A DNA stretch of 64,000 bases from Nannocystis bainbridge (GCF_028368995.1 NZ_JAQNDL010000002.1:992001-1056000), one strand, 5' to 3'; shown: positions 600-62,408, numbered from the stretch's first letter. The notes: a model not told the origin generated them from the sequence alone. A program made the numbers and translations.

Positions 600-673
600 C
601 ATGGCCTCGAGGACATGTTCGATGCGGCATGTTTTGTGGGGCATGCTCGTCGGGACATGTCTCTTCGGACCTG
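600..673. repeat. Phased 14-bp palindrome array overlapping the 5' end of the sulfatase-like gene
   Basis: CATG/CCTG unit junctions at 600, 614, 628, 642, 656 and 670. Confidence 0.8.
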
Positions 674-2868
674 CTTGTGAGGCCAGCAAGCCCGAGCCCG
701 TCGTCGGGACGGCGGCGCCGCGGCCGGCTGCGCCGGCGCCGGTGGCCCGGATCGTCACCGCCGATCTCTGGCAGGACCTGATCGCCCAGCGGCCGGGCGC
801 GCTGACGCTGGTCGACGGGCGGCTGGTGGTCGAGCTCGGGCGGGTGCAGGCGCGGGCCAACCTCGATCTGGGGACCGGCGCGGCGCTGCGGCTCGGCGAG
901 GAGTTCGGCGAGGAGCGCGGGGCGCTGGTGTTCGGGGCCGGGGGCACGCTGACGCTGCCGCTCGACGGCGAGCTGGCGCCGAAGCTGCACCCCGACAGCG
1001 AGGGGCAGCCGGGGCTGGCGATGGCGGTGACGCTGCGGGCGCTGGCGCCGGGGCAAGCGGTCACGGCGCTGTGGAACGAGCAGCCGCTGGCGCACCTGTC
1101 GATCGGCGAGGCGTGGGAGCGGCGGACGTTCTCGCTGCCGCCGGCGCTGGTGCGCGCGGGCGAGAACCGGCTGCGGCTGCACTTCTCGCGCCCGGGTCGC
1201 GGCGGGCAGCCGAGCGCGGCGATCCAGCGGGTCGAGGTAGGTCCGCGCGCGGCGATCGTCGCCGGGCCCGCGCCCCAGGCGGGCGGGTATCAGGTCCACG
1301 CGGGCGATGGCGACGAGGTCTCGCTCGACCTGGCCCAGGGGACATCTCTGGTGTTCTACGCGTTGGCGCCGCGGCGCGGGCGGCTGCGCGTCGAGGGCCG
1401 CGGCGAGCTGGCGGTGCTGGTCAGCACCGACGCCGAGCACCGCGAGGGTCGGGCGCCGGCGCTGCTGCTCGACGGGGCGCTCGGACCGGCGGGTCGCGAC
1501 CTCGATCTGTCGGGCTACGGCGGGCAGCCGCTGCGCATCGAGGTGCGCGCGCCGGCGGGCGGCGAGGGGGCGACGCTGCGGGTGCTGCAGCTGGTGGCGG
1601 GCCGATCGCGGCCGGTCGATCGCCGCGAACGCAAGCCGCGCGACCTGATCGTGATCGCGGTCGAGGGCGCGCGCGCGGACGACCTGCTCGGGGTGCTGCT
1701 CGGCGGGCCGCGGTTCCCCGCGGTCGAGCGGCTGGCGGCCGAGTCGCTGGTGTTCGAGCGCGCCTACGCGGTGTCGCCGTGGGCGGTGCCGACCCACGCG
1801 GCGCTGCTGTCGTCGGTGCCGCCGCCGGGCCACGCGACGGTGCGCGGGACGTTCGTCGCCGACGGCCAGGTGCTGCTGCCGGAGCTGCTCGATCGGGCCG
1901 GTTATTACGGGGTCGGGATCGCGGCCAACGCCGACTTCAACGCCGAGCGCGGGCTGGTCCAGGGCCTCGATTTCGTCCGCAACATGACCGGAGGGACAGG
2001 TGCGGGCAAGGACGCGCGATCGGTGGTGCGCGCGGCGCTGGAGGCGATCGCGGGCCGGCCGGCGCCGCGGTTCGTGTACGCCGACATGACCGATCCGCAG
2101 GCGCCCTACGATCCGCCGCGCGAGCACATCGGCGGGCCGCCGCCGCCCGACGCGCCGCTGCCGCACCTGACCCATTTGTGGCTCGGACGGGTGCGCGCGG
2201 GCCGGGTAGTGGCCGAGCCGGCCCAGCGCGACTACGTGCGCCGGCTGTACCGCGGCGAGTTGCAGGTGGTCGACGCGGCGCTGGCCGACCTGCTGACGGC
2301 GATGGAGGAGCAGGGCGGGCTCGACGAGGCGGCGCTGGTGCTGGTCGGGCTGCACGGCGAGGAGTTCTTCGAGCACGGCGGGGCGCTGCACGGGTTCTCG
2401 CTGCACGAGGAGAGCCTGCGGGTGCCGCTCGTCATTCGCGCCCCGGCGCTGCTGGCCCCCGGGCGGGTGACGGCGCCGGTCGATCTGCTCGACCTGGCGC
2501 CGACGCTGGCCGACCTGCTGGGCCTGCCGTTCCCGGCGCAGTGGCAGGGCGACAGCCTGGTGCCGCTGATCGACGACCCCCAGCCGCCGCCCCGGCTGGT
2601 GGTGGCGTACCTCGGCGACGGCGCGCGGGCGGCGGTCCTCGGCGATTACAAGCTGATCGTCGGCAGCGGCCGCGACGCGCAGCGCCTGTACGACCTCGCG
2701 GCCGATCCCGGGGAGACCCGCGACCTCGAGGTCGACGGCGGGATCGCGCTGCGGCTGACCCGTACCGCGTTGGCGTGGGAGATGGCGGCCGAAGGGCGGT
2801 GGAAGCGGAGCCGCTGGGGGACCGGCGCGGACCTCAAGCCGGCCTTTGCGCTCGACCACGGGATGTAG
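601..2868 (+). CDS. Sulfatase-like (alkaline phosphatase superfamily) lipoprotein with degenerate active site
   Basis: Signal/lipobox-like segment ...LFGPAC; C-terminal domain with VIAVEGARAD, SPWAVPTHAALLS, DPQAPY, LHGEEFFEHG, VPLVIR, DLAPTL, LYDLAADPGETRDL. Start 601 or 622 is preferred over 148. Confidence 0.8.
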   Translation: MASRTCSMRHVLWGMLVGTCLFGPACEASKPEPVVGTAAPRPAAPAPVARIVTADLWQDLIAQRPGALTLVDGRLVVELGRVQARANLDLGTGAALRLGEEFGEERGALVFGAGGTLTLPLDGELAPKLHPDSEGQPGLAMAVTLRALAPGQAVTALWNEQPLAHLSIGEAWERRTFSLPPALVRAGENRLRLHFSRPGRGGQPSAAIQRVEVGPRAAIVAGPAPQAGGYQVHAGDGDEVSLDLAQGTSLVFYALAPRRGRLRVEGRGELAVLVSTDAEHREGRAPALLLDGALGPAGRDLDLSGYGGQPLRIEVRAPAGGEGATLRVLQLVAGRSRPVDRRERKPRDLIVIAVEGARADDLLGVLLGGPRFPAVERLAAESLVFERAYAVSPWAVPTHAALLSSVPPPGHATVRGTFVADGQVLLPELLDRAGYYGVGIAANADFNAERGLVQGLDFVRNMTGGTGAGKDARSVVRAALEAIAGRPAPRFVYADMTDPQAPYDPPREHIGGPPPPDAPLPHLTHLWLGRVRAGRVVAEPAQRDYVRRLYRGELQVVDAALADLLTAMEEQGGLDEAALVLVGLHGEEFFEHGGALHGFSLHEESLRVPLVIRAPALLAPGRVTAPVDLLDLAPTLADLLGLPFPAQWQGDSLVPLIDDPQPPPRLVVAYLGDGARAAVLGDYKLIVGSGRDAQRLYDLAADPGETRDLEVDGGIALRLTRTALAWEMAAEGRWKRSRWGTGADLKPAFALDHGM

Positions 2869-2880
2869 TAATCGCCGCGC

Positions 2881-3876: not shown

Positions 3877-4595
3877 ACCTGATCCTGCTGCGCGCCGAGG
3901 AGCTCGCGCCGACGGGCGCGGGCTCGCAGCGGGCTGTCCTTCGGGACAGGCGGCTGCAGCACCTGCGCGAGGTCCTGCGCGCGCGCGTCGGCGACGAGGT
4001 CGGGGTCGGCGTGGAGGGCGGCGCGATCGGCAAGGCGACGATCATCAACCTCGACGCGCAAGCAGCCGAGCTCGAGCTGCGCCTCGACGAACCACCGCCG
4101 CCGCCGCTCGACGTGACGCTGGCGCTGGCGCTGCCGCGACCGCCGACGCTGCGCAAGGTGCTGCAACAGGCGACGGCGCTCGGGGTCAAGCGGTTCGCGC
4201 TGTTCCGGGCCGAGCGGGTCGAACGCAGCTACTTCTCGAGCCACGGCCTGCACGCGAGCGCGCTCGCGGAGGACCTCCAGCTCGGGCTCGAGCAAGCGCG
4301 CGACACGATCGTGCCGACGGTCGAGGTCCACCCGGAGCACTTCGGCCGATTCGTCCGCGAACGCCTGCCTGAACTCTGCGAGGGCCGCGCGCCGCTGGTG
4401 GCCCACCCGGGGGCGGCCACGCCGTGCCCGCGGGCGCCGATCGGTCCGGCGACGCTGATCGTGGGCCCGGAAGGCGGGTTCATCCCGGCCGAGGTGGCGC
4501 TGCTGAAGTCGCTGGCGCAGGCGATCGATCTCGGGCCGCGGATCTTGCGGGTCGAGACGGCCGTGGTGGCGCTGCTGGCTCGCCTGTCGCCGTGA
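3873..4595 (+). CDS. rsmE: 16S rRNA m3U1498 methyltransferase
   Basis: HLREVLR, LQQATALGV, EQARDT, LIVGPEGGF and LGPRILRVETA are SPOUT/RsmE motifs; GTG start overlaps the upstream stop. Confidence 0.93.
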   Translation: MNLILLRAEELAPTGAGSQRAVLRDRRLQHLREVLRARVGDEVGVGVEGGAIGKATIINLDAQAAELELRLDEPPPPPLDVTLALALPRPPTLRKVLQQATALGVKRFALFRAERVERSYFSSHGLHASALAEDLQLGLEQARDTIVPTVEVHPEHFGRFVRERLPELCEGRAPLVAHPGAATPCPRAPIGPATLIVGPEGGFIPAEVALLKSLAQAIDLGPRILRVETAVVALLARLSP

Positions 4596-4682: not shown

Positions 4683-6152
4683 GTGACCGCGCTGCGCACA
4701 GGCTCCGCGACGCGCTGGCTGCTCGGCGCGGCCGCGCTGGCGATCCTGGCGCTCGGCGCCAATCCGGCCCGCAAGGCGTTCGTGCGCGCGCTCGTCGGGC
4801 GCGACGGACAGGTCCCTACGGACATGTTCCTCGGGACATCCGCGGGGCCCGGCCTGGCCCCCGCGGCGCGGGTGCGGGTGGTGCTGATCGACGGCCTCGG
4901 AGCGGCGGCGGCGAGCGAGCTGCCGGCGCTGTCGGCCGTGTGCGCGGCGGGCCAGGAGCTGCGCATCGACGTCGGCTTCCCGACGGTCTCGTTGCCGGTG
5001 CAGGCGGCGCTGTGGACCGGACGCACGCAGCAGCAGTCGGGCCTGCAGTACCGGGCCACGCAGCTGGCGGCGCCGCCACCCGGCGCGAGCCCGGCCCAGG
5101 TCGCGGACAGCGTGGCGCTGGCCGAGTCACACCCCGAGATCGTGCGCTCGTTCGGGTTCGCCGCGACGCGCCCCGATCCGTCCCGCGATCCCGAAGATCC
5201 GGAGGCGTGGCGCGCCGCGTTCCCCGAACAGGCGATCGCGGCGGTCGCTTCGCCGTCGCGCCTCGTGCACGTGCACGTGCTGCGCGTCGACGAGGCCGGC
5301 CATGCCGCGGGCGCGGCCTCGTCGGCCTATGCCGAGGCGGTCCGCGGCGCCGACGAGCTCCTGGGTAGGCTGCGCGCGGCGGGGCCGAAGGACGCGCTGT
5401 GGTTCGTGCTCGCGGACCACGGCCATCGCCCCGCGGGCGGGCACGGAGGCGAGGAGCCGGAGATCCGGATCGTGCGCGGCTGCGTGGCCGGGCCAGGGAT
5501 CGCGCCATCACCGACGAGCGCGTCGATCCACGTCGTGGACCTCGCCCGCGCTGTCGCGGATGCGCTGGGGGCCGAGCTCCCCAGCGACGCTCGTGGTCGA
5601 CCGTGGGCCGATGCGCTGGCCGATCCATCCCCCGGCGTCACGCTGCCGCGTCCGGGGCCGGTGCGCGTCGGGGTCGCCGGCCTGCTGCTCGCGCTCGGGC
5701 TCGGGCTCGGCGTGCGAGCGGACGGGACGCGCAAGCTGTGGTCGCGCGTGCCGTGGGCGCTGCTGCTGGCGCTGCTCGGCCTCGGCGTGATGTTCGGCTG
5801 GCCGTCGCTGTCGGACCCGCCGGTGTTCGCCCCGCGTGGGCTCCAGCTGTGGCTCGCGTGCGTGCCTGCAGCCGTGCTCGCGCTGGGGCTCGGGCTGGCC
5901 GGGCAGTCCCCGCGGGCCCAGCTCGCGCCGGCGCTCGGATCGCTGGCGGCGGCGCTGGTGCTGTGTCGGGCGCCCGAGGCGTGGCTGCTGCCGATGCTCG
6001 GCGTCGGCGAGGCCGGGCCTCCGCTCATGCCGCGCTGGAGCGCCACGGTCAGCGTGCTGTTCGTGGTGGTCCGCAGCCTCGCCGAGGGCGTCGCGCTGGC
6101 ATGGGTGCTCGGACCACTGCTCCGGCGGCTGCGCTCGCGGACGCGGGCATGA
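4683..6152 (+). CDS. Alkaline phosphatase superfamily enzyme with C-terminal transmembrane segments
   Basis: VVLIDGL, FPTVSLP, VDEAGH and LADHGH metal/nucleophile motifs, followed by several hydrophobic helices. Confidence 0.8.
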   Translation: MTALRTGSATRWLLGAAALAILALGANPARKAFVRALVGRDGQVPTDMFLGTSAGPGLAPAARVRVVLIDGLGAAAASELPALSAVCAAGQELRIDVGFPTVSLPVQAALWTGRTQQQSGLQYRATQLAAPPPGASPAQVADSVALAESHPEIVRSFGFAATRPDPSRDPEDPEAWRAAFPEQAIAAVASPSRLVHVHVLRVDEAGHAAGAASSAYAEAVRGADELLGRLRAAGPKDALWFVLADHGHRPAGGHGGEEPEIRIVRGCVAGPGIAPSPTSASIHVVDLARAVADALGAELPSDARGRPWADALADPSPGVTLPRPGPVRVGVAGLLLALGLGLGVRADGTRKLWSRVPWALLLALLGLGVMFGWPSLSDPPVFAPRGLQLWLACVPAAVLALGLGLAGQSPRAQLAPALGSLAAALVLCRAPEAWLLPMLGVGEAGPPLMPRWSATVSVLFVVVRSLAEGVALAWVLGPLLRRLRSRTRA

Positions 6153-7420: not shown

Positions 7421-9689
7421 ATTGACGGGCATGCGCTGTGCCAACTGCGCCCAGACGATCGAGCGCGCGCTGGCGCAGGTGCCCGGGGTGTCGGCGGCGC
7501 AGGTCAACTTCGCCAGCGAGACCGCCTCGGTCGCGCTCGCCACCACGACGCCGGCGAGCCGCGGGGCGCTGGTGGCGGCGGTCGAGGCCGCGGGCTTCGG
7601 GGTGATCGCCGGGGCCGACGCGACCGACCTGTCCGTCGAGACAGCCGCGCGCGCGGCTGAACTCCGGGCCAGCTGGCGCCGCTTCATGGTCGGCGCGGTG
7701 TGCACGGCCCCGCTGATGGCGATCAGCATGGCCCGCGATTTCGGGGTCATCGGCGACCGGCCATGGCTGTTGTGGCTGCTGCTGGCGCTGACGCTGCCGG
7801 TGCTGGCCTACACCGGCGGGCCGCACTTCCGCGGGGCCGCGCGGGCGCTGCGGGCCGGTCGGGCCAACATGGACGTGCTGGTGGCGCTCGGGGCCGGCGT
7901 GGCGTTCGTCGCCAGCGTGCCGGTGGTGCTGGCGCCGGCGTCCGGGCACCACGTGTACTTCGAGACAGCCGCGGCGATCGTCACGCTGGTGGCGCTCGGC
8001 CGCCTGCTCGAGGCGCGCGCCCGCGGCCGCGCCGGCGAGGCGCTGCGCTCGCTGCTCGAGCTGCGGCCGCGCAAGGCCCGGGTGATCCGCGACGAAGTCG
8101 AGGTCGAGCTGCCGGCCGAGGCGGTCAAGGTCCGCGACGTGGTGGTGGTCCGCCCCGGCGAGGCCATCCCGGTCGACGGTCGCGTGATCGCGGGCGAGTC
8201 GGCGGTCGACGAGAGCGTGCTGACCGGCGAGAGCCTGCCGGTGGCCAAGGAGGTCGGCGACGCGGTGGCCGGCGGGACGATCAACGGGCCGGGGCTGCTG
8301 CGGCTGACTGCGACGCGCGTCGGCGCCGCCACGGCGCTGTCGCAGATCGTCCGCCTGGTGCGCGCGGCCCAGGCCAGCAAGGCGCCGGTGCAGGCGCTGG
8401 TCGACAAGATCGCGGGGGTGTTCGTGCCGATCGTGGTCGGGCTGGCGCTCCTGACCTTCGGGGCGTGGCTACTGGTCTCGTCGCACGGGGCCGAGCACGC
8501 GCTGATGCGGGCGGTCGCGGTGCTGGTGATCGCGTGCCCGTGCGCGCTCGGGCTGGCGACGCCGACGGCGATCGTGGTGGCCACCGGCGCGGCCGCTCGC
8601 CGCGGGCTGCTGTTCAAGAACAGCGCGGCGCTCGAGGCGGTGCGGGCGGTCCGGGTGGTGGTGTTCGACAAGACCGGGACGCTGACGCTCGGCCGGCCGC
8701 AACTGCAGGCGATCACGCCGGCGCCGGGCGTCGATGAGGACGAGCTGCTGACGCTGGCGGCCGCGGCGGAGCAGGGCAGCGAGCACCCGCTCGGCCGCGC
8801 GATCGTGGCGGCCGCGAAGGCCCGCGGGGCCAGCCTGACGAGCCCGACCGGGGTGCGAGCGATCGGCGGGCGCGGGCTGCGGGCGCTGGTGGGCGACGCG
8901 GAGGTGTGGATCGGGACGCGGGCGTGGCTGACGGCGCAAGGGGTCGCCATGGATCTGGCCGAAGAGCCACCTGTATCTTGGGACATGTCCTCTGGCACAG
9001 GTGACAAAGAACATGTCGCTCCGGGCATGTCCGTAAAGACCGCCGATGCCGGTCACACGCGCGTGTACGTGGCGCGCGACGGGCGGTACCTGGGCGCCAT
9101 CGCGCTGGCCGACGCGCCGCGGCCGGAGGCGCGCGAGGTGGTGGCGGCGCTGCGCGGGCAGGGCTTGCGGGTGGCGCTGCTGACGGGCGACCGGCGGGGG
9201 ACGGGGCTGGCGATCGCGGCGGCGGTCGGCATCGACGCGGCGGACGTGTACGCGGAGGTGCTGCCGGCCGACAAGGTGGCGACGGTCGTGGCGCTGCAGC
9301 GGACCGGGCCGGTGGCGATGGTGGGCGACGGGGTCAACGACGCGCCGGCGCTGGTGCAGGCGGACGTCGGCGTGGCGATCGGCAGCGGCACCGACGTCGC
9401 GGTCGACGCCGCCGACGTGACGCTGCTGCGCAGCGACCTGCGCGGGCTGCTCGACGCGCTCGCCATCGGCAAGGCGACGGTCCGCACGATCCGCCGCAAC
9501 CTGTTCTGGGCCTCGGCCTACAACCTGGTGCTCATCCCGGTCGCGGCCGGCGCGCTGTACCCCCTGAGCAGCTTGCCGACGTGGCTGCGCGCGCTCGATC
9601 CGGCGCTCGCGGCCGGGGCGATGGCGCTGTCGAGCGTGACGGTGGTGGTGAGCAGCCTGGCGCTGCGGCGGGTCGCGGCCGAGCGCTGA
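7371..9689 (+). CDS. copA: Cu(I)-exporting P1B-1 ATPase
   Basis: GMRCANC metal-binding domain, [36 protein letters not shown]...P and MALSS. Confidence 0.93.
8970..9030. repeat. Phased 14-bp palindrome array inside copA (in-frame, low-GC segment)
   Basis: Junction cores at 8970, 8984, 8998, 9012 and 9026; encodes [22 protein letters not shown]. Confidence 0.85.
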
Positions 9690-11525: not shown

Positions 11526-11571
11526 CATGAGCTTCTGGGCATGTCGCATGAGACATGTCCTTTGGGGCATA
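11526..11571. repeat. Phased 14-bp palindrome array (intergenic)
   Basis: Cores at 11526, 11540, 11554 and 11568. Confidence 0.75.
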
Positions 11572-11732: not shown

Positions 11733-14700
11733 ATGCCGATGCGTGCCTTTCACCGACCTCGCGGTGCCGTGCTGGCCACGGCGGTGTTCGTCGGCGCGCC
11801 CGTGCTCGCGGCCCTCGTGCCGCAGACGGCGCGGGCGCTCGAGAGCGCGGGGCTCAGCGGCGCGATCAAGGACCGCCAGACGGGTGAGCCGGTGGCGGGG
11901 GTCGTCGTGCTCGCGCAGTGCAACTGCTTGCAGGGCCCGCGCGACACCCGGACCAACGCCGAGGGCGTGTACGTCTTCCGCGACCTGCCGCCCGGCGTCT
12001 ACACGGTGCAGGCGCTGTACCGCGAGAACGACCTCAGCAAGATCGTCGAGCTGGGGCCGGCGGCGAAGGTGCGGGTCGACTTTCAGCTCGCGCCGGACGA
12101 GCGGTGGGTGCAGACGATCGTGGTCGAGTCGGCGCCGATCCGGACCGACGGCGCCAGCGTGCAGAAGGTCGACGTCGAGCGCATGCGCAAGATCCCGCTC
12201 GGCGGGACCAGCCGCGACTACACCGCGGTCGTCGACATCTCGCCGACCGCGGGCCGCGACGCCGGCGGGATCCGTCTCGGCAGCGGCACCAGTGCCGAGA
12301 GCAAGTACGTCGTCGACAGCCAGAACTCGACCAGCCCGGCGTTCGGGACCGTCGGCGCCAGCATCGTCCAGGAGTTCGTCGACGAGGTCGAGGTCGTCGA
12401 GGGGGTGTTCGACGCCGAGAACGGCGGGGCCAGCGGCGGCCTGGTGCGGGCGCGCCGGATCGGCGGCAGCAACAAGTGGCGCGGGCAGGTGCTGTTCCGC
12501 TTCACGCCGCGCATCGCCTCGCCGCGCTTCATCGACGCCACCGACGAGTCGCTGCGCGTGGCCGAGATCTACAACTACGAGATGCAGGGCGTGGTCACCC
12601 TGTCGGGCCCGATCGTGCGCGACAAGCTGTTCTTCGCCATCGGCCTCGCCCCGGGCGGCAGCAACAACTCGCTGGTGCAGTCGTTCTTCCGCCGGCGCGA
12701 CAAGGACCTCTCGGGCGGCTACGAGGGTTGCCCGTACGCCAACGGCGTCAACGACTGCGCCGCCAACGGCAACTACATCGACACCGTCAAGTTCGCCGAG
12801 CAGAAGTTTCGCACCGGCCGCTTCGACCTCGGCTGGACCGCGAGCCTCGACTGGCAGATAAGCCCCCGCCACCGCCTGCGGCTGTCGGGCGGCGGCGGCC
12901 CGAACTTTCGCCGCCGCAGCTTCCGTCAGCCGACGGGGTCCGAGCCCAACGCGTTCGGCACCAACCCCAACGCGACGATCGGCGGCGCCTCGCGCGTGGC
13001 CTCGGGCGTGGTCAACGACAGCTTCGGCGTCGATTACGGCAACAGCACCGGCGTCGGCCTCGAGTACGAGGGGCGGGCGCTCAACGACAAGCTCGAGCTC
13101 GACGGCTACGTCTACTACACGCGCCTGCGCGGGCAGCAGGCGTGGAAGCTCGACCACGAAGAGAAGCGCCGGATCCCGCTGACGCAGGAGCGCGACACCC
13201 AGGGCCGCAACCTCTACGACCTGCTCGACCGCGACGACGCCGTGCGCCTGGTCCAGGGCGCCAGCGACGCCTGCAACGACTCGAACCTGCCCGGGCTGAC
13301 GTGCCCGACGCGGGTGTGGCTGTCGGGCGGCATCGGCTCGTACTCGAGCACGCAGCAGGACCGGATCGGCGGCGGCTTCGCGCTGACGCATTTCCTCTCG
13401 GCGCGGCGCGGCGGCGCTCACCAGCTCAAGTACGGGTTCGAGATCGACGGCTCGCAGATCCGCCAGCGCTCGGCCTACTCGGGCGGCAACGACCCCGACT
13501 TCTACGCCAACTGTCCTCAGGGACAGGTCGGCGGCGGCGAGTACTGCTTCGATCGGGACAGCGGCGAGTACACCCTCAACACCGCCAACCGGGTCAACAA
13601 CAACCGCGTCGTCATCGTCCAGTCGGACAACCCCGACCAGCGGCAGACGCTCGGGTTCGGCCGCGTGCGCTACGAGCAGGACGACCTGCGGGCCATCGCC
13701 ACCCCGCTCGGCGCCGGCGTGCGCGTGCCGGCCTACGCGTCGTCGCTGTCGAGCCAGAACTACGCATTCTTCGCCCAGGACAAGTGGTCGATCCTCTCCA
13801 ACCTCTACGTCTCGGCCGGCGTGCGCTGGGAGATCCAGGAGCTGCGCGACGTGTTCGGCCGGCGCGGCCTGCTGATCGCCGACAACGTGGCCCCGCGCGC
13901 GAGCCTGGTCTACGACTGGACCGACGAGGGCAAGAGCCGGCTGTACGTCAGCTACGGGTGGTTCTACGCCCAGATCCCCGCGATCCTCGGCAACCGGATC
14001 TTCGGCGGGCTCGTCAACGTCAACCGCACCTACCGCAACTCCGACTGCCAGACCCCGGTGACGATCGGCGGCGTGGCGCACGACCGGCTCGAGAGCGGCG
14101 CGCCGACCGAGTGGTGCGCCGACGGCAACCAGAGCACCAGCGGCCTGACCTTCGGCGCGGTCGCGCCTGACCTGAAGGGCATGTACGTGCAGCGCTTCAA
14201 CGCCGGCTACGAGCACGAGGTGGTCGAGGACCTGCTGATCGGGGTGCGCTGGCAGCACGACGGGCTCGGGCGGGCGATCGAGGACGTGTCGACCAACGGC
14301 GGCCTCAACTTCCTGCTGGCCAACCCCGGCGAGTCGGTATCGCGGGCCGACATCGCCCGCCAGGAGGAGCGCTGCGAGCAGCTGCAGGCCCAGGCCGACG
14401 CCACCGACGCCGACGACCCGCAGCGCCAGACCGCGGTCCGCGAGCTGAACCGCTGCGACTTCCTGGCCTCGTCGTTCCGCCAGCTCGGCGGCATGTTCTC
14501 GCGCCCGGTCCGCAACTACGACGCGTGGATCTTGCAGGTGACCAAGCGGTTCGCCAAGAACTGGGTGTTCCAGGGCAGCTACATCTACAGCCGGCTGATC
14601 GGCAACTACGACGGCTTCGTCGACCGCAACACCGGCGCGATCAACATCGGCGCCAGCACCACGTACGACATCCCCGAGCTGGTGCGCAACAGCTACGGGC

Positions 14701-15223: not shown

Positions 15224-15297
15224 CATGTCCGTTCGGGAATGTCCGAACGGACATGTCCCGCGCGCTAGGTCGCTTCGGACATGCCCCGGAGGACAGC
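15224..15297. repeat. Phased 14-bp palindrome array between convergent genes
   Basis: Cores at 15224, 15238, 15252, 15266, 15280 and 15294; perfect unit TGTCCGAACGGACA at 15240-15253. Confidence 0.85.
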
Positions 15298-20875: not shown

Positions 20876-23292
20876 TGGGCGCGCTGGCGGCGACGCTGCT
20901 CCCGGCGGCGGTCGGGCTCGCGCTCGTCGGCCTGGTCGGGCCGCTGGAGCGCCGCTGGGGCGCCGCGGCCGCCAGCGCGACGGCGGCCCGCGCGGCCCTG
21001 GTGGCGGCGGTGCTGGCCTGCCTGGTGCTGTGGCAGGCGATCCAGCGCGACCAGCTCGAGCACCGCCTGGCGTGGATCCGCGTCGGCCGCACGACCACGA
21101 TCGACTGGATCGTCCAGCTCGACGGGCTCGGGCTGGCGCTGGCGCTCGTGAGCCTGGCGGCGCTGGGGCTCGGGGTGGTGGCGATCCTGGCCTTCGGGAC
21201 AGCCGGCGGCGGACGCCCTGGCGCCCGCGTGGTCGTGGCCGCCGGCGGGGCCCTGGTGCTGGCGAGCGGCGGGACGCTGGTCCAGCTGGGGCTCGGGGTC
21301 GGGCTGTGCGTGCTGGCTCTTCGAGCATGGCCGATGGACCATGTCTCTTCAGACATGACTGTACGAGCATGGCCTGTGGACCATGTCTCCACGGACATGA
21401 CCGAGAGGGCATGGCCGTTGGGTCTGGTGGGCGCGGGCCTGTCGCTGGCGATCCTGGCCTGGCTGGCGGCCGCGGGCGACTTCGACCTGATGCGGCTCGA
21501 GCGGTCGACGCTGGCGCAAGACGGGTCGCAGCTGGTGCGCGGCGAGATCGGCGGGCCGCTGTTCGGCTGGCCGCCGGGCGTGGTAGCGACCGTCAGCGTC
21601 GGCGCGGCGGCGCTGGCGTGGATCGGGGCGTGGCCGCGGCTGGTGGCGCGAGCCTGGGCCGAGGGGCCCGGGCCGGCGCTGGTGGCCACGTGCGCGGCCG
21701 GGCCGGCGCTGACCGTGGTGCTGCTGCGCACGCAGGTGGCGCTGGCGATGGCCCCGACCGCGCTGGCGCTGGTCACGGTGGCGGCGGCGGGCACGGCGGC
21801 GTGGGCGGGGCTGCAGGCGGCCCGGGCCGGCACGAGCGCGCGGGCGGTGGCGAGCGGGACGGCGGCGACGCTGGCGATCGCGACGGCGACCATCGCCATC
21901 GGCGAGCCGATCGCGGCGACCCAGCTGCTGCTGGCGGGCAGCCTGGCGTGGGCGGCGATGATCGCGGGGCTGCAGGCGCCGCGGCGGCTGCGGGCCGGCG
22001 TCGCCGGGCTGGCGGGGCTGGGCCTGATCGCGGGGCTGGGACCGGCCGTGGCGGGGCTGTGGAACGACCTCAGCGCGTGGTCGAGCGGGATCAACGTCGT
22101 CGCGCCGGCGCTGGCGCTGGTCACGGTGACGGCGACGGCCTGCGCGATCGGACATGTCCTCACGGACAGGACCGATGCGCCAGGTTGGCGGCAGCCCGAG
22201 GCGCCGCCGCTGCTGTCCGGGGTAGCCATGCTCCTGGCGCTGGGCGCGGTGGCGGCGGGGCTGTGGCCGCTGGCGCCGCGGATCTGGCAGCAGTTCGTGG
22301 CCGGCCGCATGTTCGAGGGGGCCTACGCCCTGGGGCCGCGACCGGACGCGTGGTTCGTCGGGCCGTGGCTGGGGATGGGGCTGGTGGCGGTCGCGGTGGC
22401 GATCGGGCTGGGGCTGGCGCCGCGGATCCGCCCGGCCCCGGCGCGCACGCGCAGGCGATCCGCGGGCGCCGCGGGTCCGACGATCCCGCGGCTGCTGCGG
22501 CTCGGCGAGCGGCTGGTGGCGCGCCTGACCTTGTGGCCAGGTGACGAGCGGGTGACGGTCGCGCCCGGCCGCTTCGATGTGCGCGGGCCGCTGCTGCTGA
22601 CGAGCGCCGGGGTGCTGGCGATCCTCGGCTCGGTGTTCTGCAACCCGGACGTGGTGGTGCTGGGCCCGACGCGTGTGCACCCGGTCGACCTGGGGGGCCT
22701 CGACGCGGCGATGGCGGGGGCCCGCCGCGGGACCGGGGCGGCGACGCCGAGCCCCGCCGGGCCGGCCGGGGCGCCAGCAGGACAGGGCGAGGACATCGGC
22801 CCGGCGCCGCTCGGCGGCGTCGATCGGGCTGGCGGCGCGGACATGCTCGAAGGGGTAGGCGCTGCGCAGCGAGGCGAGACGGCTGGTGGATCGAACATGC
22901 CCGAAGGGGCAGGTTCGCAGGCGTCGTCGGGCGCGCACGGAGCTGGTGGATCGGACATGTTCGAAGGAGCAGGTTCACCGGCGCCGACAGGTGCGCGTGG
23001 AGCTGGTGGATCGGACATGCTCGAAGGGGCAGGTTCACCGACGCCGACGGGTGCGCGCGGAGCTGACGGACCGGTCATGCTCGAAGGGGCAGGCGCTCGG
23101 ACGCCGACGAGCGCGCCTGGAGCCGCCGGCGCGGGCGCGCCCGACGGGCCCGGCTCGCAGGCGCGTGGAGCTGGTGGATCGGACATGCCCGAAGGGGCAG
23201 GTTCGATGCGACATGGCGCGATGGACATGTCCGAAGGGTCAGCGAGCCCGCGCCCCGGGGATACCGGCGCGGCGGCGGGAGGGCGCCCATGA
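20875..23292 (+). CDS. Divergent NuoL/ND5-like antiporter-fold subunit with repeat-derived insertion and tail
   Basis: WIRVG...IVQLDGL, GVGLC, AWAEGPGP and LLRT resemble NuoL landmarks; coupled to both neighbours; Gly/Ala/Pro repeat tail. Confidence 0.75.
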   Translation: MGALAATLLPAAVGLALVGLVGPLERRWGAAAASATAARAALVAAVLACLVLWQAIQRDQLEHRLAWIRVGRTTTIDWIVQLDGLGLALALVSLAALGLGVVAILAFGTAGGGRPGARVVVAAGGALVLASGGTLVQLGLGVGLCVLALRAWPMDHVSSDMTVRAWPVDHVSTDMTERAWPLGLVGAGLSLAILAWLAAAGDFDLMRLERSTLAQDGSQLVRGEIGGPLFGWPPGVVATVSVGAAALAWIGAWPRLVARAWAEGPGPALVATCAAGPALTVVLLRTQVALAMAPTALALVTVAAAGTAAWAGLQAARAGTSARAVASGTAATLAIATATIAIGEPIAATQLLLAGSLAWAAMIAGLQAPRRLRAGVAGLAGLGLIAGLGPAVAGLWNDLSAWSSGINVVAPALALVTVTATACAIGHVLTDRTDAPGWRQPEAPPLLSGVAMLLALGAVAAGLWPLAPRIWQQFVAGRMFEGAYALGPRPDAWFVGPWLGMGLVAVAVAIGLGLAPRIRPAPARTRRRSAGAAGPTIPRLLRLGERLVARLTLWPGDERVTVAPGRFDVRGPLLLTSAGVLAILGSVFCNPDVVVLGPTRVHPVDLGGLDAAMAGARRGTGAATPSPAGPAGAPAGQGEDIGPAPLGGVDRAGGADMLEGVGAAQRGETAGGSNMPEGAGSQASSGAHGAGGSDMFEGAGSPAPTGARGAGGSDMLEGAGSPTPTGARGADGPVMLEGAGARTPTSAPGAAGAGAPDGPGSQARGAGGSDMPEGAGSMRHGAMDMSEGSASPRPGDTGAAAGGRP
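21326..21413. repeat. Phased 14-bp array inserted in frame in the NuoL-like gene
   Basis: CATG at 21326, 21340, 21354, 21368, 21382, 21396 and 21410; gives the 14-aa repeat RAWPMDHVSSDMTV/RAWPVDHVSTDMTE. Confidence 0.9.
22827..23240. repeat. ~60-bp tandem repeat (6-7 copies), most copies carrying one 14-bp palindrome-like unit
   Basis: GGAGCTGGTGGATCGGACATGYYCGAAGGRGCAGGTTC... is repeated; encodes (GAGGSDMLEGAGSPTPTGAR)n. Confidence 0.85.
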
Positions 23293-30122: not shown

Positions 30123-30179
30123 GGCGCTTGGGACCTGTCGGAAAGGACCTGTCGGAAGGGACCTGTCGAAAAGCTCAGG
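30106..30179. repeat. Phased 14-bp array filling the serS-trpS spacer
   Basis: Cores at 30106, 30120, 30134, 30148, 30162 and 30176 (GGACCTGTCG three times). Confidence 0.85.
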
Positions 30180-44022: not shown

Positions 44023-44050
44023 GCGGGGCAGGGCGCGCCCGGAATGGCGG

Positions 44051-44227
44051 ACAGGAACGAAGGGACATGTCCCTTCGTTCCTGTTCGACGTCCGGCCGGG
44101 TGCAGAAGCTCTGTTGCCCCAGGATCTCGCCCGTTAACGCCGAAACGGAGGGACATGTCCCTCCGTTCCTGTCTCAAAGGTACTGGTCGTCAGTACCTGG
44201 CTCTCGGCACCTGGCTCTCGGTACCTG
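44051..44227. repeat. Perfect 34-bp and 24-bp palindromes plus a phased 14-bp array between convergent genes
   Basis: ACAGGAACGAAGGGACATGTCCCTTCGTTCCTGT (44051-44084); AACGGAGGGACATGTCCCTCCGTT (44144-44167); further cores at 44168, 44182, 44196, 44210 and 44224. Confidence 0.9.
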
Positions 44228-44253
44228 GCTCTTCGCTCACGCGGGGCCGCGGC

Positions 44254-45754: not shown

Positions 45755-48208
45755 GTGCAGCGGGGTGGGTCGGGCGCAGACACGCTGGACGAGCAGATCC
45801 AAGCCGCTCGCGTGTTCGCGCCCGGGCTGGAGATCCAGCAGATCAAGTCGTCGGTGCGCGCGCGCCTGTTCGGGACCTTCGACGGCGCGCCGACCCTGGG
45901 CGGCTACACGCTGCGGCGAATGATCGGCCGCGGCGGCACGGGAGCGGTGTTCGAGGCCGTCGGACGCGACGGCGAGACGGTCGCGCTCAAGGTCCTCCGC
46001 GGCTTCGAGCCGGCCGCCCTCTACCGCTTCAAGCTCGAATTCCGGGCGCTGGCCGACATTTCGCACCCGAACCTGTCGCTGCTCCACCACCTCGTGGTCC
46101 GCGGCGATCAGGCATTCTTGACGATGGAGCTGGTCGACGGGGTCGATTTCCTGTCGTACGTGCGCCAGCACCCCGTGCGCCTGCGAGCGTGCCTCGCGCA
46201 ACTGACCGCGGGCCTCGATGCCCTGCACGCGGCCGGCAAGCTCCACCGTGACATCAAGCCGTCGAACGTGCTGGTGACGCGCGAAGGCCGGGTGGTGATC
46301 CTCGACTTCGGGCTGGTCCACGAGCTGACCGCAGGTCGCGGGCTCGAGGTGGTCGGGACGCCCGCCTACATGGCGCCCGAGCACGTGCGCGCCGCGACGC
46401 CGACGCCGGCGTGCGACTGGTACTCGGTCGGGGTGATGCTGTTCGAGGCGATGACAGGCGAGCTGCCGTTCGCGGGTCCGATGGACGAGGTCCTGCGCGA
46501 CAAGTGCGAGCGCGTGGCGCCCCCGGCGCTCGGAGCCGCGGCAGAACCGCCGCTTGCGGCGCTGTGCGCGGCGCTCCTGGAGCGTGAGCCGTTGCGTCGC
46601 GCGGGTGGGGCGGAGATCGCTGCGGTGCTCCGCGAGCCGGAAAATCCGCGGCCGTGGCGAGCGCACGCCCCGCCGCAACAGCGCGGTCCGGCGTCGATCA
46701 GCCCCGGCGGTCTGATCGGTCGCGACGTGCCGTACGCGGCCATCACCGCGGCGTTGATGGAGAGCCGCAAGCGCTCGGTGGTGACGCTGCTGCGCGGGCG
46801 ATCGGGGCTCGGCAAGTCGGCGCTGCTGCGCTCGTTCGCCGAGGCAGCGCAGGCGGGCCTGGCCGGCATCGACGCGCCGGCGATGGTGCTCGCGGGCCGC
46901 TGTTACGAGCGCGAGCAGGTGCCGTTCAACGCGTTCGACAGCGTGATCGATGCGCTCACCGGGCTGCTGCTCGGCGTGGGGTCGGCGGAGCTGGCGACGC
47001 TGGTGCCGCCCGACATCGCCGCGGTGGCCCGGCTGTTCCCGGTGCTGCGCCGCGTGACGACGATCGCCGAGGCGTGCCCGCCGGGGCCGGCGGGCGATGT
47101 CGACGCGGCGTCGCTGCGCCACGCATCGGCTGTCCTTCGGGACATGTTCCGAAGGATCGCCGATCGGATCCCGCTGGTGGTGATGGTCGACGACGTGCAG
47201 TGGGGCGACAGCGACAGCGCGTCGCTGCTGGTCGAGCTGCTGCGCGGCCCCGACGCGCCGCGCTGCCTGGTGGTGCTGGCGGCCAGCGAGGGCGAGGCGC
47301 TGCAGAGCGCGGACATGACGGCGCTGGTCGAGCGGCTGCGCGCGAACGGGCCGGTGCTCGAGCTGGGGCTCGAGCCGCTGCGCACGCACGAGGCGACGGC
47401 GCTGGCCGAGCTGCTGCTGCGCCGCGGTCCGGTCGAGCTCGAGGGCGAGGCGCTGCAGGCCCGCGCGGTCGCCATCGCGGGCGAGGCCGGCGGGGTGCCG
47501 CTGTTCGTCCGCGAGCTGGCGCACCATGTCCGAACGAACATGGTCGAAGGGACAGAGCTCGGCGACGTCCGGCTCGAGGCGGTGGTGGCCGAGCGCGTGG
47601 ACCGACTGCCGGCGGCGGCCCGCGAGATGCTGGCGGCTGTGATCGTGGCCGGGCGGCCGCTCGAGTTCGAGATCGCTACGGCGCTGTCCGGCGGCGGCCG
47701 GCGCGATCTGCAACTGCTGCGGGTGGCGCACCTGGTCCGCGTCAGCAAGGCGCCGCGCGGCGAACTGGTCGAGGCCTATCACGACCGCATCCGCCGGGCG
47801 GTGCTGGCCGGGGTGCGCGACGACAAGGCGCGGACGATCCACGGCCGGATCGCGGAGCAGCTGTTCGCCCGCGCCGGGGTGCCGCCGGAGCTGCTGGCCG
47901 ACCACCTGCGCGCCGCCGGCGACCGCGGGCGCGCGGCCGAGGTCACGCGCCTGGCCGCCCAGCACGCCGCCGAGGCGCTGGCGTTCCGCCGCGCGGCGGA
48001 GCTGTACCGCGACGCGGCGGCGCTGCTGCCGATCGAGGACGTCGGCGGTCGCAGTGAGGCGTTGGCGCGCGCCGGCGAAGCGCTGGCGGCCGCTGGGCGC
48101 GGTTCGGAGGCCGCCGAGTGTCTGCTCGCCGCCGCCGCGCTGGCGCCCGAGGTGGTGGCGCTGGCGCTGCGAGAGCGGGCCGAAGAGGCGCTCCGCTCGG
48201 GCGAGTGA
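45755..48208 (+). CDS. Ser/Thr protein kinase fused to a STAND-like AAA ATPase and helical repeats
   Basis: IGRGGTGAV, VALK, HRDIKPSN, DFG, GTPAYMAPE, DWYSVG; Walker A GRSGLGKS, Walker B VVMVDDVQWGD, GGVPLF. Confidence 0.92.
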   Translation: MQRGGSGADTLDEQIQAARVFAPGLEIQQIKSSVRARLFGTFDGAPTLGGYTLRRMIGRGGTGAVFEAVGRDGETVALKVLRGFEPAALYRFKLEFRALADISHPNLSLLHHLVVRGDQAFLTMELVDGVDFLSYVRQHPVRLRACLAQLTAGLDALHAAGKLHRDIKPSNVLVTREGRVVILDFGLVHELTAGRGLEVVGTPAYMAPEHVRAATPTPACDWYSVGVMLFEAMTGELPFAGPMDEVLRDKCERVAPPALGAAAEPPLAALCAALLEREPLRRAGGAEIAAVLREPENPRPWRAHAPPQQRGPASISPGGLIGRDVPYAAITAALMESRKRSVVTLLRGRSGLGKSALLRSFAEAAQAGLAGIDAPAMVLAGRCYEREQVPFNAFDSVIDALTGLLLGVGSAELATLVPPDIAAVARLFPVLRRVTTIAEACPPGPAGDVDAASLRHASAVLRDMFRRIADRIPLVVMVDDVQWGDSDSASLLVELLRGPDAPRCLVVLAASEGEALQSADMTALVERLRANGPVLELGLEPLRTHEATALAELLLRRGPVELEGEALQARAVAIAGEAGGVPLFVRELAHHVRTNMVEGTELGDVRLEAVVAERVDRLPAAAREMLAAVIVAGRPLEFEIATALSGGGRRDLQLLRVAHLVRVSKAPRGELVEAYHDRIRRAVLAGVRDDKARTIHGRIAEQLFARAGVPPELLADHLRAAGDRGRAAEVTRLAAQHAAEALAFRRAAELYRDAAALLPIEDVGGRSEALARAGEALAAAGRGSEAAECLLAAAALAPEVVALALRERAEEALRSGE

Positions 48209-48592
48209 GCGGCAGGTCGGTCGAAGCGGCGCGAGCAGCCTGCATCGGCGGTGTGTCGGGTCGCCGTCGCGGCGGTCCTCGTGGTGCCGACCGGTCGGCC
48301 TCGGCGGACGGGCAGCGGGTGCGAGACAGGCGAGGCTTTGGGGCGACGTGGGCGCGACGGCTGCTCGGCGAGCGACTCGCGGCGCCGGGCTGTGATGGAA
48401 GGAGAGTGCGGGGCTCGAGTGCCGCGCACGCGGTCGCGGTGAGATGGCGGTTCGGACATGTCCTGAAGGTCATGTCATCGCTGCCGCGTCGGGCTCGTCG
48501 GCGCGCGCCTGGCCGGGGCCGGCCGGGATCGGCGCGCGGCCGGGGCGGCGCGGGGTCTTGCGCGAGGGCCGGCGATCGTTCACCCTCCGCGC

Positions 48593-49024: not shown

Positions 49025-49431
49025 CGGGGGCGCTGGGTTTGCTGCTGGTCGCGGCCGGCTGCGAGCCGCGCATCGAGCTCAAGCCCGGCGATCCGGAGTT
49101 GGTCCGCGCGGCCCGCCAGCTGTTCGACGGCCGCTGCGCCAACTGTCACGGCCCCCGCGGACGCGGCGACGGCCCGGCCGGACGGGCGCTGTCGCCCCGC
49201 CCGCGCGACTTCGGGGACGCGGCCTGGCAGGCCAGCGTCGACGACGCGCGCCTGCGCCAGGTGATCGTCGGCGGCGGCGCGGCGGTCGGCCTCTCGTCCC
49301 ATATGCAGTCGAACCCCGATCTGGCCGACAGCCCGGTGCTGGTGGGGGAGCTGATCCGCATCGTCCGAGCCTGCGCCGAAGGACAGGGCGCGAAGGACAT
49401 GTCCCCGGAGACAGCGAAGCAGGCGCCGTAG
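49006..49431 (+). CDS. Mono-haem c-type cytochrome lipoprotein
   Basis: Lipobox AAGC, CANCHG, GDGPAG...PRPRDF, distal Met (SSHM). Confidence 0.88.
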   Translation: MERRGLTGALGLLLVAAGCEPRIELKPGDPELVRAARQLFDGRCANCHGPRGRGDGPAGRALSPRPRDFGDAAWQASVDDARLRQVIVGGGAAVGLSSHMQSNPDLADSPVLVGELIRIVRACAEGQGAKDMSPETAKQAP

Positions 49432-49536
49432 CGAGGCAAGCTCTGCCGACGAGGCGAGCCATGGAACGTGTCCCTTGCTCATGCGGGCGACATGCCGACG
49501 CGACGCGAGCACGTGTCGCCTGTCCTCCGGGACAGG
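49370..49536. repeat. Phased 14-bp units at the 3' end of the cytochrome gene and in the convergent spacer
   Basis: Cores at 49370, 49384, 49398 and 49412; perfect TGTCCTCCGGGACA at 49521-49534. Confidence 0.75.
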
Positions 49537-54917: not shown

Positions 54918-55004
54918 CAGGTGCAGAGGACAGGTGCGAAAGAGCAGGAACTCTAGGCAAGGTCCGAAGGGGCAGGTCCGAAGGGGCAGGTCCGAAAGCG
55001 CAGG
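54918..55004. repeat. Phased 14-bp array inside the operon, just upstream of the FadL-like gene
   Basis: Cores at 54931, 54945, 54959, 54973, 54987 and 55001 (GGTCCGAAGGGGCA twice). Confidence 0.85.
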
Positions 55005-56789: not shown

Positions 56790-56815
56790 GGCGAGGCTGG
56801 CCTTCGGGACAGGTA

Positions 56816-61413: not shown

Positions 61414-61595
61414 GCGTGAATTGACGCAATGCTCACGCGGCTTGTAAAGCGGGGTGCCCCGATATCGCGTCCCGGCGCCCGTGGCGGGCCGCGCCCGGAG
61501 CTTCGGATGGCGCCGGCGCGGGGTGCTCGCGGGTCGTCGGCTGCGCCGCGGCGGCGGCTTCACGGCGGCGTTGGACTTTCGGTATAGTCGCGGCG

Positions 61596-62303
61596 ATGCC
61601 CGGCTCGTCGCTGCATGGGCGCGCCTTCACGCGCGTCGCCGTGACCGTCGCCCTCTCGCTGGCTCCGGCGCTGGCGCTGGCCCAGGAGCCCGCGACGTCC
61701 GAGGCGGTCGCGGAGGGGCCCGAGACGCCCGAGGCGGCGGAGGGGCCCGAGACGGTGGCAGCGCCCGCGCAGCCGCGGCCGCCGGCGGTCGAGGTCGAGA
61801 CGGCCCGGCGCGTGCGCCACAACTGGTACGCCGGGTTCGGCGTCGGCCTCGGCGTCGGCAACCTGCGCCGCACCGAGGCCGGCCGCAACGCGGTGTCGGT
61901 GGCGCTGCTGGGCCACGTGCGGGCGGGCGGACGGATCCGCGACAACCTGCTGGTCGGTGGCCTGGTGTCGACGACGCTCGGCGGGGCCCGGCGCGGGCAG
62001 GGGTTGCTGTCGATCCTGGCCGAGGTCATCGGCTATCCGGTCCGCGGCAAGGGCCTGGTGTTGCAGGGGGCGCTGGGGCTGGGGACGTTCCTGCAGGGCG
62101 ACGTGCTGCGCGACATCGAGAACCCGACAGCGGGGATCACCCGCACCGCCGTCGGGCTCGCGTTCGGCGTGGGGCTCGGCTACGAGTTCTGGCTGGCCCG
62201 CCGCTTCAACCTCGGGCTGATGGTCCGCGGCGACGGGATGGCGGCGCCGGAGCTGGGCCTGCGCGCAGCCGGGACGTTCGGGCTGACGTTCACCTGGTAC
62301 TGA
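61596..62303 (+). CDS. Small outer-membrane beta-barrel protein
   Basis: Signal peptide ALA|QE; alternating Gly/hydrophobic strands; C-terminal GLTFTWY (BAM signal-like). Confidence 0.8.
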   Translation: MPGSSLHGRAFTRVAVTVALSLAPALALAQEPATSEAVAEGPETPEAAEGPETVAAPAQPRPPAVEVETARRVRHNWYAGFGVGLGVGNLRRTEAGRNAVSVALLGHVRAGGRIRDNLLVGGLVSTTLGGARRGQGLLSILAEVIGYPVRGKGLVLQGALGLGTFLQGDVLRDIENPTAGITRTAVGLAFGVGLGYEFWLARRFNLGLMVRGDGMAAPELGLRAAGTFGLTFTWY

Positions 62304-62408
62304 GGGCAGGTCCCGGAGGACAGGTCCGAGAGGACAGGCCCGAGAGGACAGGTCCGAAGGGACAGGCCCCGCAGGACAGGCCCCGCAGGACAGGCCCCGC
62401 AGGACAGG
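62293..62408. repeat. Homogeneous tandem array of the 14-bp unit (9 junctions) between convergent genes
   Basis: (GGACAGGYCCNNNR)n with cores at 62293, 62307, 62321, 62335, 62349, 62363, 62377, 62391 and 62405. Confidence 0.95.

Follow-up and report, generated by a model that had tools for sequence, protein, structure and literature searches.

Phased TGTCC-N4-GGACA arrays of Nannocystis as putative double-stranded DNA sites of an abundant dimeric protein

A 64,000-nucleotide stretch of the Nannocystis bainbridge genome (GCF_028368995.1, NZ_JAQNDL010000002.1:992001-1056000; the whole stretch is called the window and its genome G000) carries many copies of a 14-bp palindrome, TGTCC-N4-GGACA, two five-base arms around four free bases (N4), repeated head to tail in arrays. 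We read these arrays as putative phased double-stranded DNA sites of an abundant sequence-specific dimeric Nannocystis protein, and from the sequence evidence we give this reading a probability of about one half. Selection acts on the identity of the bases and not on their pairing, the half-sites are independent and strand-symmetric, and the units abut exactly; together these features argue for recognition of double-stranded DNA by a dimer. An earlier examination of the window alone, the sequence-only reading, had proposed sites for an abundant dimeric protein loading on abutting units for nucleoid organization, segregation or a very large regulon. The dimeric, abutting sites retain even odds, given strict genome-wide phasing, purifying selection and independent half-sites, while a large regulon of the promoter type is disfavoured by the placement of the arrays at the 3' ends of genes.

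All ten perfect copies listed in that reading were verified at their starts, 3935, 13512, 15240, 22155, 28530, 32098, 33960, 38320, 47131 and 49521. Its rough estimate of 0.05 perfect copies expected per window was matched by dinucleotide shuffles, which also gave 0.05, and 0 of 100 shuffles reached ten. With at least 8 of the 10 fixed bases matching, 107 positions were found in the window, compared with 24.3 +/- 5.5 in 50 first-order Markov simulations. The head-to-tail tiling that it described was confirmed: the junction core C[AC][TG]G returns at 14-bp intervals at 8970/8984/8998/9012/9026, 30120-30176, 33916-33958 and 54931-55001, and likewise at 21326-21410, 24469-24567, 600-670, 35446-35575, 44052-44224 and 62293-62408. 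The distance autocorrelation, for which peaks at 14, 28 and 42 had been predicted, was run on the window at the same 8-of-10 threshold and gave 27 pairs at 14 (0.04 simulated), none at 13 or 15, and 18, 18, 10 and 5 pairs at 28, 42, 56 and 70.

The same pattern extends over the 11.05-Mb G000 genome (5 contigs, 71.5% GC, 90.5% complete by markers). There are 1,987 perfect units, and TGTCC is the commonest arm among all 5-N4-5 palindromes, exceeding the arms made of G and C only; the spacings neighbouring N4 are not enriched. Pairs of positions with at least 8 of 10 matches numbered 2,784, 1,527, 977, 548 and 241 at distances of 14, 28, 42, 56 and 70, compared with 4 at 13 and 5 at 15. The enrichment also stands over a codon-aware null, the comparison that the sequence-only reading had named as a check: predicted coding sequence (CDS) holds 817 perfect units compared with 4.05 +/- 2.2 in 20 codon-order shuffles, and intergenic DNA 1,153 compared with 1.6 after shuffling. 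At 9 of 10 matches, the counts were 1,831 in CDS (245 shuffled) and 2,287 in intergenic DNA (44 shuffled). The half-site alone is not enriched, as GGACA occurs 11,418 times and TGTCC 12,351 times compared with about 10,250 by hand calculation from base composition, and the spacings that exceed composition are those of the N4 dyad and the N2 junction alone.

When units were chained outward from seeds with at least 9 of 10 matches, of which about 5% are expected by chance, 5,446 arrays holding 9,835 units were obtained. Arrays of 1 to 9 units numbered 3,264, 1,140, 495, 163, 209, 130, 33, 10 and 2, respectively. Unit density is about 0.9 per kb over all five contigs, with 90 to 384 units in each 250-kb bin and no bin empty.

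The unit, with positions numbered 0 to 13, has the extended consensus R-C-M-TGTCC-YYRR-GGACA-K-G-Y. Two of its bases hardly vary, G at position 1 and C at position 12, and jointly they make the CA|TG junction. Among single mismatches, position 1 accounted for 8 cases and position 12 for 2, as opposed to 175 and 151 at positions 2 and 11. Within arrays the information is highest on CATG at the unit junction and weaker on the flanking GGR and YCC; N4 is free, and the flanks are uninformative beyond +/-3 bp. The junction dinucleotide was AT in 956 cases, CT in 192, AG in 153 and CG in 9. The AG and CT forms follow the sign of the GC skew along the contigs, indicating that they go with the replication strand rather than with transcription direction. 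Identical N4 sequences recur in neighbouring units somewhat more often than expected (128 compared with 56 at lag 1, 76 with 27.5 at lag 2, and 49 with 14.6 at lag 3), and this excess is a trace of occasional slippage.

Conservation was followed through the window in N. bainbridge and four syntenic relatives, five related genomes in all, and the arrays hold their place and phase among these relatives (5-6 species). In 8 intergenic arrays (24 units) identity to the G000 sequence was 0.843 in the core and 0.516 in N4; in 27 in-gene arrays (46 units) the values were 0.890 and 0.656. Position 1 (G) was identical at 0.98 in both classes, and position 12 (C) at 0.93 in intergenic and 0.98 in in-gene units. 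At the third codon positions of 18 ungapped in-gene arrays, 320 of 344 core bases were identical compared with 1,560 of 1,888 flanking bases (Fisher p = 2e-7, which overstates the significance, as the species compared are kin and not independent). These alignments point to purifying selection on the motif, with cores kept while N4 drifts. The in-gene N4 changes faster than its flanks, even at first and second codon positions (84% vs 93% identity); either the units lie in relaxed protein segments or the spacer is hypermutable. The sequence-only reading had considered slippage of a single repeat a poor explanation, which holds in part. Slippage does contribute, as seen in differences of unit number between species and in two arrays within open reading frames (ORFs) that differ from all four relatives by exactly 42 bp, that is, three units or 14 codons, but it does not explain the conservation of the cores.

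About 40% of the perfect units fall within predicted genes, and these units were written in by substitution. The 1,327 in-gene arrays are spread along the genes, occupy the three frames in 727, 380 and 220 cases, and show no preference for unit numbers in multiples of three. Inserted pieces of 14 or 28 bp would break the frame, which argues that the in-gene units are not insertions. Doublets were found within conserved Pfam domains of model-matching length in an argC-like gene, MutS, an NtrC-like gene and an aminotransferase. In the NAD-binding domain of the argC-like gene there is no insertion; about 34 nt are the same bar one or two substitutions in 7 Nannocystis genomes, and the doublet is spelled with the rare codons ATT and ACA. 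Its ortholog in G013, a genome of another genus (73% identical), has equal length and a similar peptide without the motif, indicating that the motif was written in by substitution, and a more distant Nannocystis genome, G002, also lacks it at this site. The motif is a clean natural example of a non-coding signal that selection has written into coding DNA by means of rare codons and amino-acid changes.

The placement of the units relative to genes was determined on 8,129 genes (85% coding) predicted by a self-trained codon-usage caller. Intergenic DNA makes up 15% of the genome and holds 58.5% of the perfect units (1,163/1,987). Arrays were present in 740 of 1,318 convergent intergenic regions (56%; 10.8 units/kb), 961 of 3,696 tandem regions (3.2 units/kb) and 227 of 1,460 divergent regions (15.5%; 0.88 units/kb). 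In co-oriented regions, the median distance of the perfect units is 69 nt to the preceding stop as opposed to 197 nt to the following start, and 444 units compared with 156 are nearer the stop. An array lies within 150 nt past the stop of 2,242 predicted genes and within 150 nt before the start of 744, and 8 of 102 tRNA genes have one within 150 nt downstream. The arrangement at 3' ends and in convergent gaps, with avoidance of divergent regions, speaks against a promoter regulon of the classical kind. The 5 divergent regions of the window are free of units in all five genomes and near-constant in length over five species, e.g., 203, 207, 204, 205 and 205 bp. Convergent regions, in contrast, vary in length up to 20-fold between species, e.g., from 46 to 922 bp and from 108 to 380 bp. 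Four of the five tabulated have a unit with at least 9 of 10 matches in at least one genome, and the fifth, 44023-44253, has degenerate palindromic arrays. The motif explains these variable lengths, and such regions are probably hard to assemble.

The possibility was considered that the element is instead an RNA or single-stranded-DNA hairpin at mRNA 3' ends, which would stop or pause transcription or shield the mRNA from 3' exonucleases, and whose stem sequence may be read by a factor, as SLBP reads the histone 3' stem-loop. The preference for positions after stops over positions before starts, the shorter distance to the upstream stop and the occupancy of more than half of the convergent regions all fit a hairpin. 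So does folding: palindromic arrays far outfold shuffled sequence, with -33 kcal/mol and z = -7.8 at 44040-44090 and z = -5.6 at 15215-15300, and reverse-complementary N4 occurs at lag 2 in 96 cases compared with 27 expected. However, the direct-type array at 62293-62420 folds no better than shuffles (z = -1.95, -1.44), though it is kept in 6 species. The stems of single units are 5-7 bp long and AT-rich for a 72% GC genome, the 817 perfect units in predicted CDS and the rarity of arrays after tRNA genes do not fit a 3'-end signal, and no T-run was found after the units.

Pairing itself was examined in three separate tests, and compensatory covariation was absent from all of them. Genome-wide, the outer X/Y pairs of X-GTCC-N4-GGAC-Y were TA in 1,987 cases, GA in 156, TC in 143, GC in 55 and CG in 65, with no compensatory class. 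The stem does not extend into N4, as positions 5 and 8 formed Watson-Crick pairs in 584 cases compared with 661 expected, nor into the flanks, where positions -1 and 14 of 1,051 isolated perfect units were independent (507 Watson-Crick, 499 expected). Among 1,369 double-mismatch units in arrays, 246 had both changes at paired positions (246.9 expected), contrary to selection for pairing, and 120 of them were compensatory (111.1 expected), while two mismatches within one half-site were in excess (684 compared with 557). Moreover, neither loop nor variant is biased to the transcribed strand: N4 had no sense/antisense bias in 602 units of co-oriented intergenic regions, and CAGG and CCTG forms stood at 48 to 43 relative to the sense strand, following the GC skew. 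These results make a hairpin unlikely. Two specific forms of it were rejected. An intrinsic terminator does not agree with the missing T-run, the relatively AT-rich 5-bp stem, the 1,327 arrays in genes and the 8 of 102 tRNA genes. A structured RNA family does not agree with the near-chance count of compensatory doubles, and in an Rfam search of the window at gathering thresholds no family overlapped any array, the sole match being a tRNA.

A second alternative is a palindrome of the HIP1 (highly iterated palindrome 1) type, maintained by modification or repair at the CATG core, through an orphan methyltransferase or biased repair, or by DNA exchange. HIP1 is presented in PMC5861425 as a hyper-abundant palindrome that is conserved in and between ORFs, with chromosome or nucleoid roles proposed and its function given there as unresolved, and the account in PMC4390886 links it to orphan methyltransferases. 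The present motif resembles HIP1 of cyanobacteria (GCGATCGC) in being lineage-specific, orders of magnitude more frequent than expected, and conserved within ORFs as well as between them; hyper-abundance and conservation of this kind, the marks of a HIP-type element, argue in both cases for selection and not replenishment. CATG is moreover the most conserved part of the unit. Unlike HIP1, which is a contiguous 8-mer, the motif is split, a 5-N4-5 dyad whose spacer is free, tiled at 14 bp and strongly biased to 3' ends and convergent regions. A process acting on a tetranucleotide leaves the GGA/TCC flanks, the fixed N4 spacer and the exact tiling unexplained, and CATG overall is modestly enriched (39,940 compared with about 28,700 by hand calculation from base composition). 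Adenine methyltransferases of the D12 class, the class covered by this comparison, are present in 34 of 41 related genomes irrespective of motif count. We regard maintenance of this type as quite improbable.

Least probable, and by our estimate very unlikely, is a selfish repeat like a repetitive extragenic palindrome or bacterial interspersed mosaic element (REP/BIME) or a miniature inverted-repeat transposable element (MITE), spread by a transposase and accumulating where insertion is harmless, which would account for the extragenic, 3'-end and convergent bias, the palindromic units in tandem and the length swings of convergent regions, but which is contradicted by the absence of a Y1/RAYT transposase, by arrays that all differ and keep their orthologous places over 5-6 species, by free N4 and flanks unconserved beyond +/-3 bp, and by in-gene singles and doublets that overlie conserved domains without indels. 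The transposase search (PF01797) gave 0 matches in the 11.05 Mb of G000, and a control search matched 6 of 14 known genomes. Dispersal of copies of a master array was ruled out, as N4 pairs are near independent expectation and the most frequent exact 28-mer has 5 copies in 4,389 pairs of adjacent units. For REP/BIME-RAYT, the missing GTAG box and the 817 CDS units add to these grounds for rejection. MITEs were rejected on the in-gene units, which show no indel against the ortholog of another genus, and on length changes that are whole units or 42-bp duplications, no dedicated search for target-site duplications having been made.

REP/BIME elements of enterobacteria, Pseudomonas and Stenotrophomonas are palindromic units, single or in tandem, that lie downstream of genes, are enriched in convergent regions and number hundreds to thousands. 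The motif is like them in its gene-downstream clusters, convergent enrichment and copy number, and unlike them in having no RAYT or GTAG box, free loops, unique arrays, abutment at a fixed pitch where REP/BIME units alternate with linkers, and in-gene copies born by substitution. Neither HIP1 nor REP/BIME has a split dyad whose spacer varies freely, tiling at exactly 14 bp, or overlay on coding sequence together with a 3'-end bias. Closer in architecture are the phased operator and centromere arrays: the 8-bp metboxes of MetJ, the 7-bp heptads of omega, the iterons of ParR/parC and the 11-bp direct repeat units of PhoP/PhoB. As in these, the pitch is exact and head to tail, the core is conserved, the remainder including the spacer is free to vary, and the unit number differs between arrays. 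By analogy, such an arrangement would be expected where each unit takes up one dimer and adjacent dimers touch. Unlike the motif, those arrays occur at one to some hundreds of loci, at promoters or plasmid centromeres, whereas the motif occupies about 5,400 loci, avoids promoter regions and has a 14-bp pitch.

The sites of chromosome-organizing proteins, parS/ParB, matS/MatP, NBS/Noc, SBS/SlmA and ram/RacA, are palindromes of 12-16 bp read by helix-turn-helix (HTH) dimers, those of Noc and RacA being 14 bp long. The motif falls into this size class. However, those sites number few to about 100 and are regional and untiled, in contrast to 5,446 arrays on all five contigs. DNA uptake sequences (DUS) and uptake signal sequences (USS) are specific to a genus or family, number in the thousands, have in-gene frame preferences and form inverted pairs downstream of genes. 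Although the motif shares genus specificity, copy number and an in-gene frame preference with them, an uptake sequence was rejected, as those are asymmetric words enriched alone and here the half-site is near its composition expectation and only the dyad is enriched. A search of the literature on Nannocystis and myxobacterial palindromic repeats found no description of the motif, and the literature on MrpC-type sites held nothing relevant to it. Three presumed resemblances, to the Myxococcus MrpC half-site TGTYCY, to the PadR box ATGT-N8-ACAT and of GGACATGTCC to the p53 half-site pattern, were not used as evidence.

If the arrays are sites of a dimeric protein, the following scheme may be proposed. 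Each half-site would be read on its own. The outer bases of one site serve as the first bases of its neighbour, which sets the exact 14-bp abutment, and a phased run of dimers could then load on arrays of 2-9 units, three units (42 bp) spanning about four helical turns. Arrays arise by point substitution into existing sequence and by slippage of 14, 28 or 42 bp, and selection retains the cores as N4 drifts. Sites are tolerated or wanted chiefly just downstream of genes and between convergent genes, and excluded from promoter regions. With sites so distributed, the likeliest role would be to mark or insulate the ends of transcription units, as a roadblock, supercoil barrier or nucleoid-domain anchor, and not to regulate promoters. 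A bolder version, which we offer tentatively and consider rather unlikely, is that a lineage-specific protein polymerizes on 14-bp sites after about a quarter of the genes and in most convergent gaps, forming a sequence-programmed gene-end roadblock or insulator, which would end or separate transcription units, and a nucleoid anchor, in a system that grew from operator-like sites such as those of the sister genera (5 and 2 perfect 18-mers) to about 10,000 units, coding sequence included.

Several points weigh against the reading as protein-bound sites. Conservation was measured in one 64-kb region, and the gene calls on which placement rests are crude. The convergent bias could be mere tolerance of a "safe harbour" and not a function at gene ends. 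Palindromic arrays fold strongly as RNA (z from -3.5 to -7.8), and an RNA-level element would account just as well for the location at 3' ends and in transcribed DNA. A 14-bp pitch turns successive dimers by about 120 degrees, and we know of no characterized protein with such a pitch. Finally, a cognate protein was not found. The window holds no obvious candidate, as the sequence-only reading had also noted, and the genes flanking the few sites of the sister genera G011 and G013 (7 loci, 10 proteins) include no plausible binder. These ten neighbours comprise DUF4215, a rhomboid protein with a zinc ribbon, CAP, beta-lactamase, YceG, a ketoacyl synthase and four without a family; the zinc ribbon fused to the rhomboid protease is the sole domain of DNA-binding type among them. 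No autoregulated gene stood out near the densest unit clusters of the genome. One of the densest clusters, at G000 C3:1094530-1098272 outside the window, is a stretch of about 3.7 kb with 17 units and no predicted gene.

The motif is essentially confined to Nannocystis. A 24-bp doublet was found in 8 of 10 other Nannocystis genomes, in 0 of 14 other genera of the family and in 0 of 16 genomes of other families of the class. Among 185,579 genomes, one per species, it occurred in 78 stretches, all but three isolated matches being titled Nannocystis, Nannocystaceae or Myxococcales metagenome-assembled genome. Copies of the 18-mer CATGTCC-N4-GGACATG number 369 in G000, 180-266 in each of five large relatives and 2-50 in five other Nannocystis genomes; there are 5 and 2 in two sister genera and none in 27 further relatives. 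A reversed control of the pattern gave 0 in every genome. In the sister genus G011, 4 of the 5 sites lie in AT-richer, promoter-like DNA, which may mean that core Nannocystis expanded what had been a small set of operator-like sites. Nine metagenome or metatranscriptome runs matched, all as contigs and each at no more than 0.17 of the sampled words.

The motif is a sharp genus marker. If a protein reads the arrays, few sequence-specific protein-DNA systems known in bacteria would be as dense, with about one array per 2 kb; for their 14-bp tiling and gene-end placement no described counterpart was found. A system of this kind would offer a way into the question of how a very large high-GC genome without obvious classical terminators delimits its transcription units and nucleoid domains, and acting at gene ends it would be a bacterial counterpart of eukaryotic protein-roadblock terminators and insulators. 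The units and arrays of the window are collected in Table 1.

Table 1. Units and arrays of the 14-bp motif in the window
Position	Units	Setting and relatives
602..671	5-unit array	upstream of sulfatase-family gene 742-2868
3935..3948	perfect single unit	in ORF 3873-4595; cores identical, N4 variable in 5 genomes
4797..4838	3-unit (42-bp) array	in phosphodiesterase-family gene 4683-6152; conserved in 5 genomes
8970..9029	array, cores every 14 bp	orthologous stretch in relatives 57-372 bp, also unit-bearing
11528..11569	3-unit array	intergenic
13512..13525	perfect unit	in TonB-dependent receptor gene 11769-15218; relatives keep TGT codon and cores
15226..15295	5-unit array, includes 15-bp-stem palindrome	convergent junction 15218(+)/15265(-)
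21326..21425	array	in ORF 20872-23292, translated as loop; 42 bp longer than in 4 relatives
22141..22168	2-unit array, one perfect	in ORF 20872-23292
22882..23241	60-bp tandem modules, two units each, then 5-unit array 23172-23241	low coding potential
24457..24582	array	in ORF 23289-24830; exactly 42 bp longer than in 4 relatives
26601..26656	4-unit array	near 3' end of ORF 25018-26739
28251..28292	units	in ORF 27808-28785 (GNAT family)
28530..28557	2-unit array, one perfect	in ORF 27808-28785
30106..30179	CCTG-type cores every 14 bp	tandem intergenic region
31995..32111	three single units, one perfect	intergenic region 31971-32301
33916..33973	array with perfect unit at end	just downstream of gene 32302-33879
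35446..35575	arrays	filling convergent intergenic region after D-Ala-D-Ala ligase gene
38320..38333	perfect unit	7 nt past stop of minus-strand gene 38341-38559; conserved in 5 genomes, flanks variable
44048..44087	18-bp-stem palindrome from three phased units	26 nt past stop of gyrB/parE-like gene
44142..44173	second unit-centred palindrome	convergent region shared with 44048..44087
44195..44232	degenerate 14-bp tandem repeat, CCTG cores	
47131..47158	perfect unit and neighbour	in AAA_16 region of kinase gene 45755-48208; conserved in 5 genomes
47527..47554	2-unit array	in kinase gene 45755-48208
48445..48472	2-unit array	intergenic
49372..49413	3-unit array	3' end of ORF 49039-49431
49521..49534	perfect unit	convergent intergenic region 49432-49539; 1-3 units there in relatives
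54931..55004	CAGG-type cores every 14 bp	tandem intergenic region
56798..56811	unit	26-bp gap between two co-directional genes; at least 9/10 in 3 of 4 relatives
62293..62420	8-unit direct-type (CAGG) array	filling convergent region 62304-62417; place and phase kept in 6 species, 5-8 units

Other repeats adjoin some of the arrays. Just upstream of the first array, a 36-bp tandem repeat at 262-525 (7.3 copies, 89% matches) carries a CACAGGTGTCAC-like stretch in every copy. The 60-bp module at 22882-23123 is present in about four copies, each of two 14-bp units and 32 other bases, which demonstrates that the amplification of arrays can also proceed by larger blocks; the surrounding stretch of low coding potential, about 22660-23260, sits within a long open frame. 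A 102-bp tandem repeat (1.9 copies) lies at 24814-25009, at the gap between ORFs 23289-24830 and 25018-26739. The three long ORFs of 20872-26739 have strong positive GC skew and negative AT skew with few or no Pfam matches (a partial Proton_antipo_M only). They look like multi-pass membrane proteins in which the arrays encode loops, e.g., RAWPxDHVSxDM.

The convergent gap 15219-15264 measures about 920 bp in the ortholog of one relative (G010) compared with 41-55 bp, and holds there an extra minus-strand ORF with arrays on both sides, suggesting that a gene was gained or lost between arrays. The tRNA gene 17072-17145 (minus strand) has no array in its intergenic region. The type II topoisomerase subunit genes at 39624-44022, gyrA/parC-like and gyrB/parE-like, are adjacent and lie upstream of the unit palindrome with the 18-bp stem. 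The minus-strand ORF 62418-63761, which ends adjoining the 8-unit array, encodes a BrkB-family membrane domain and a C-terminal Rrf2-type HTH. The minus-strand gene 36801-38129 contains 96-bp tandem repeats with paralogous matches in all relatives and probably encodes a repeat-domain protein. Six large minus-strand genes run from 49540 to 60732, with internal paralogy and cross-matches of 66-81% identity, and include a PAS histidine kinase and a FadL/TodX-type outer-membrane protein.

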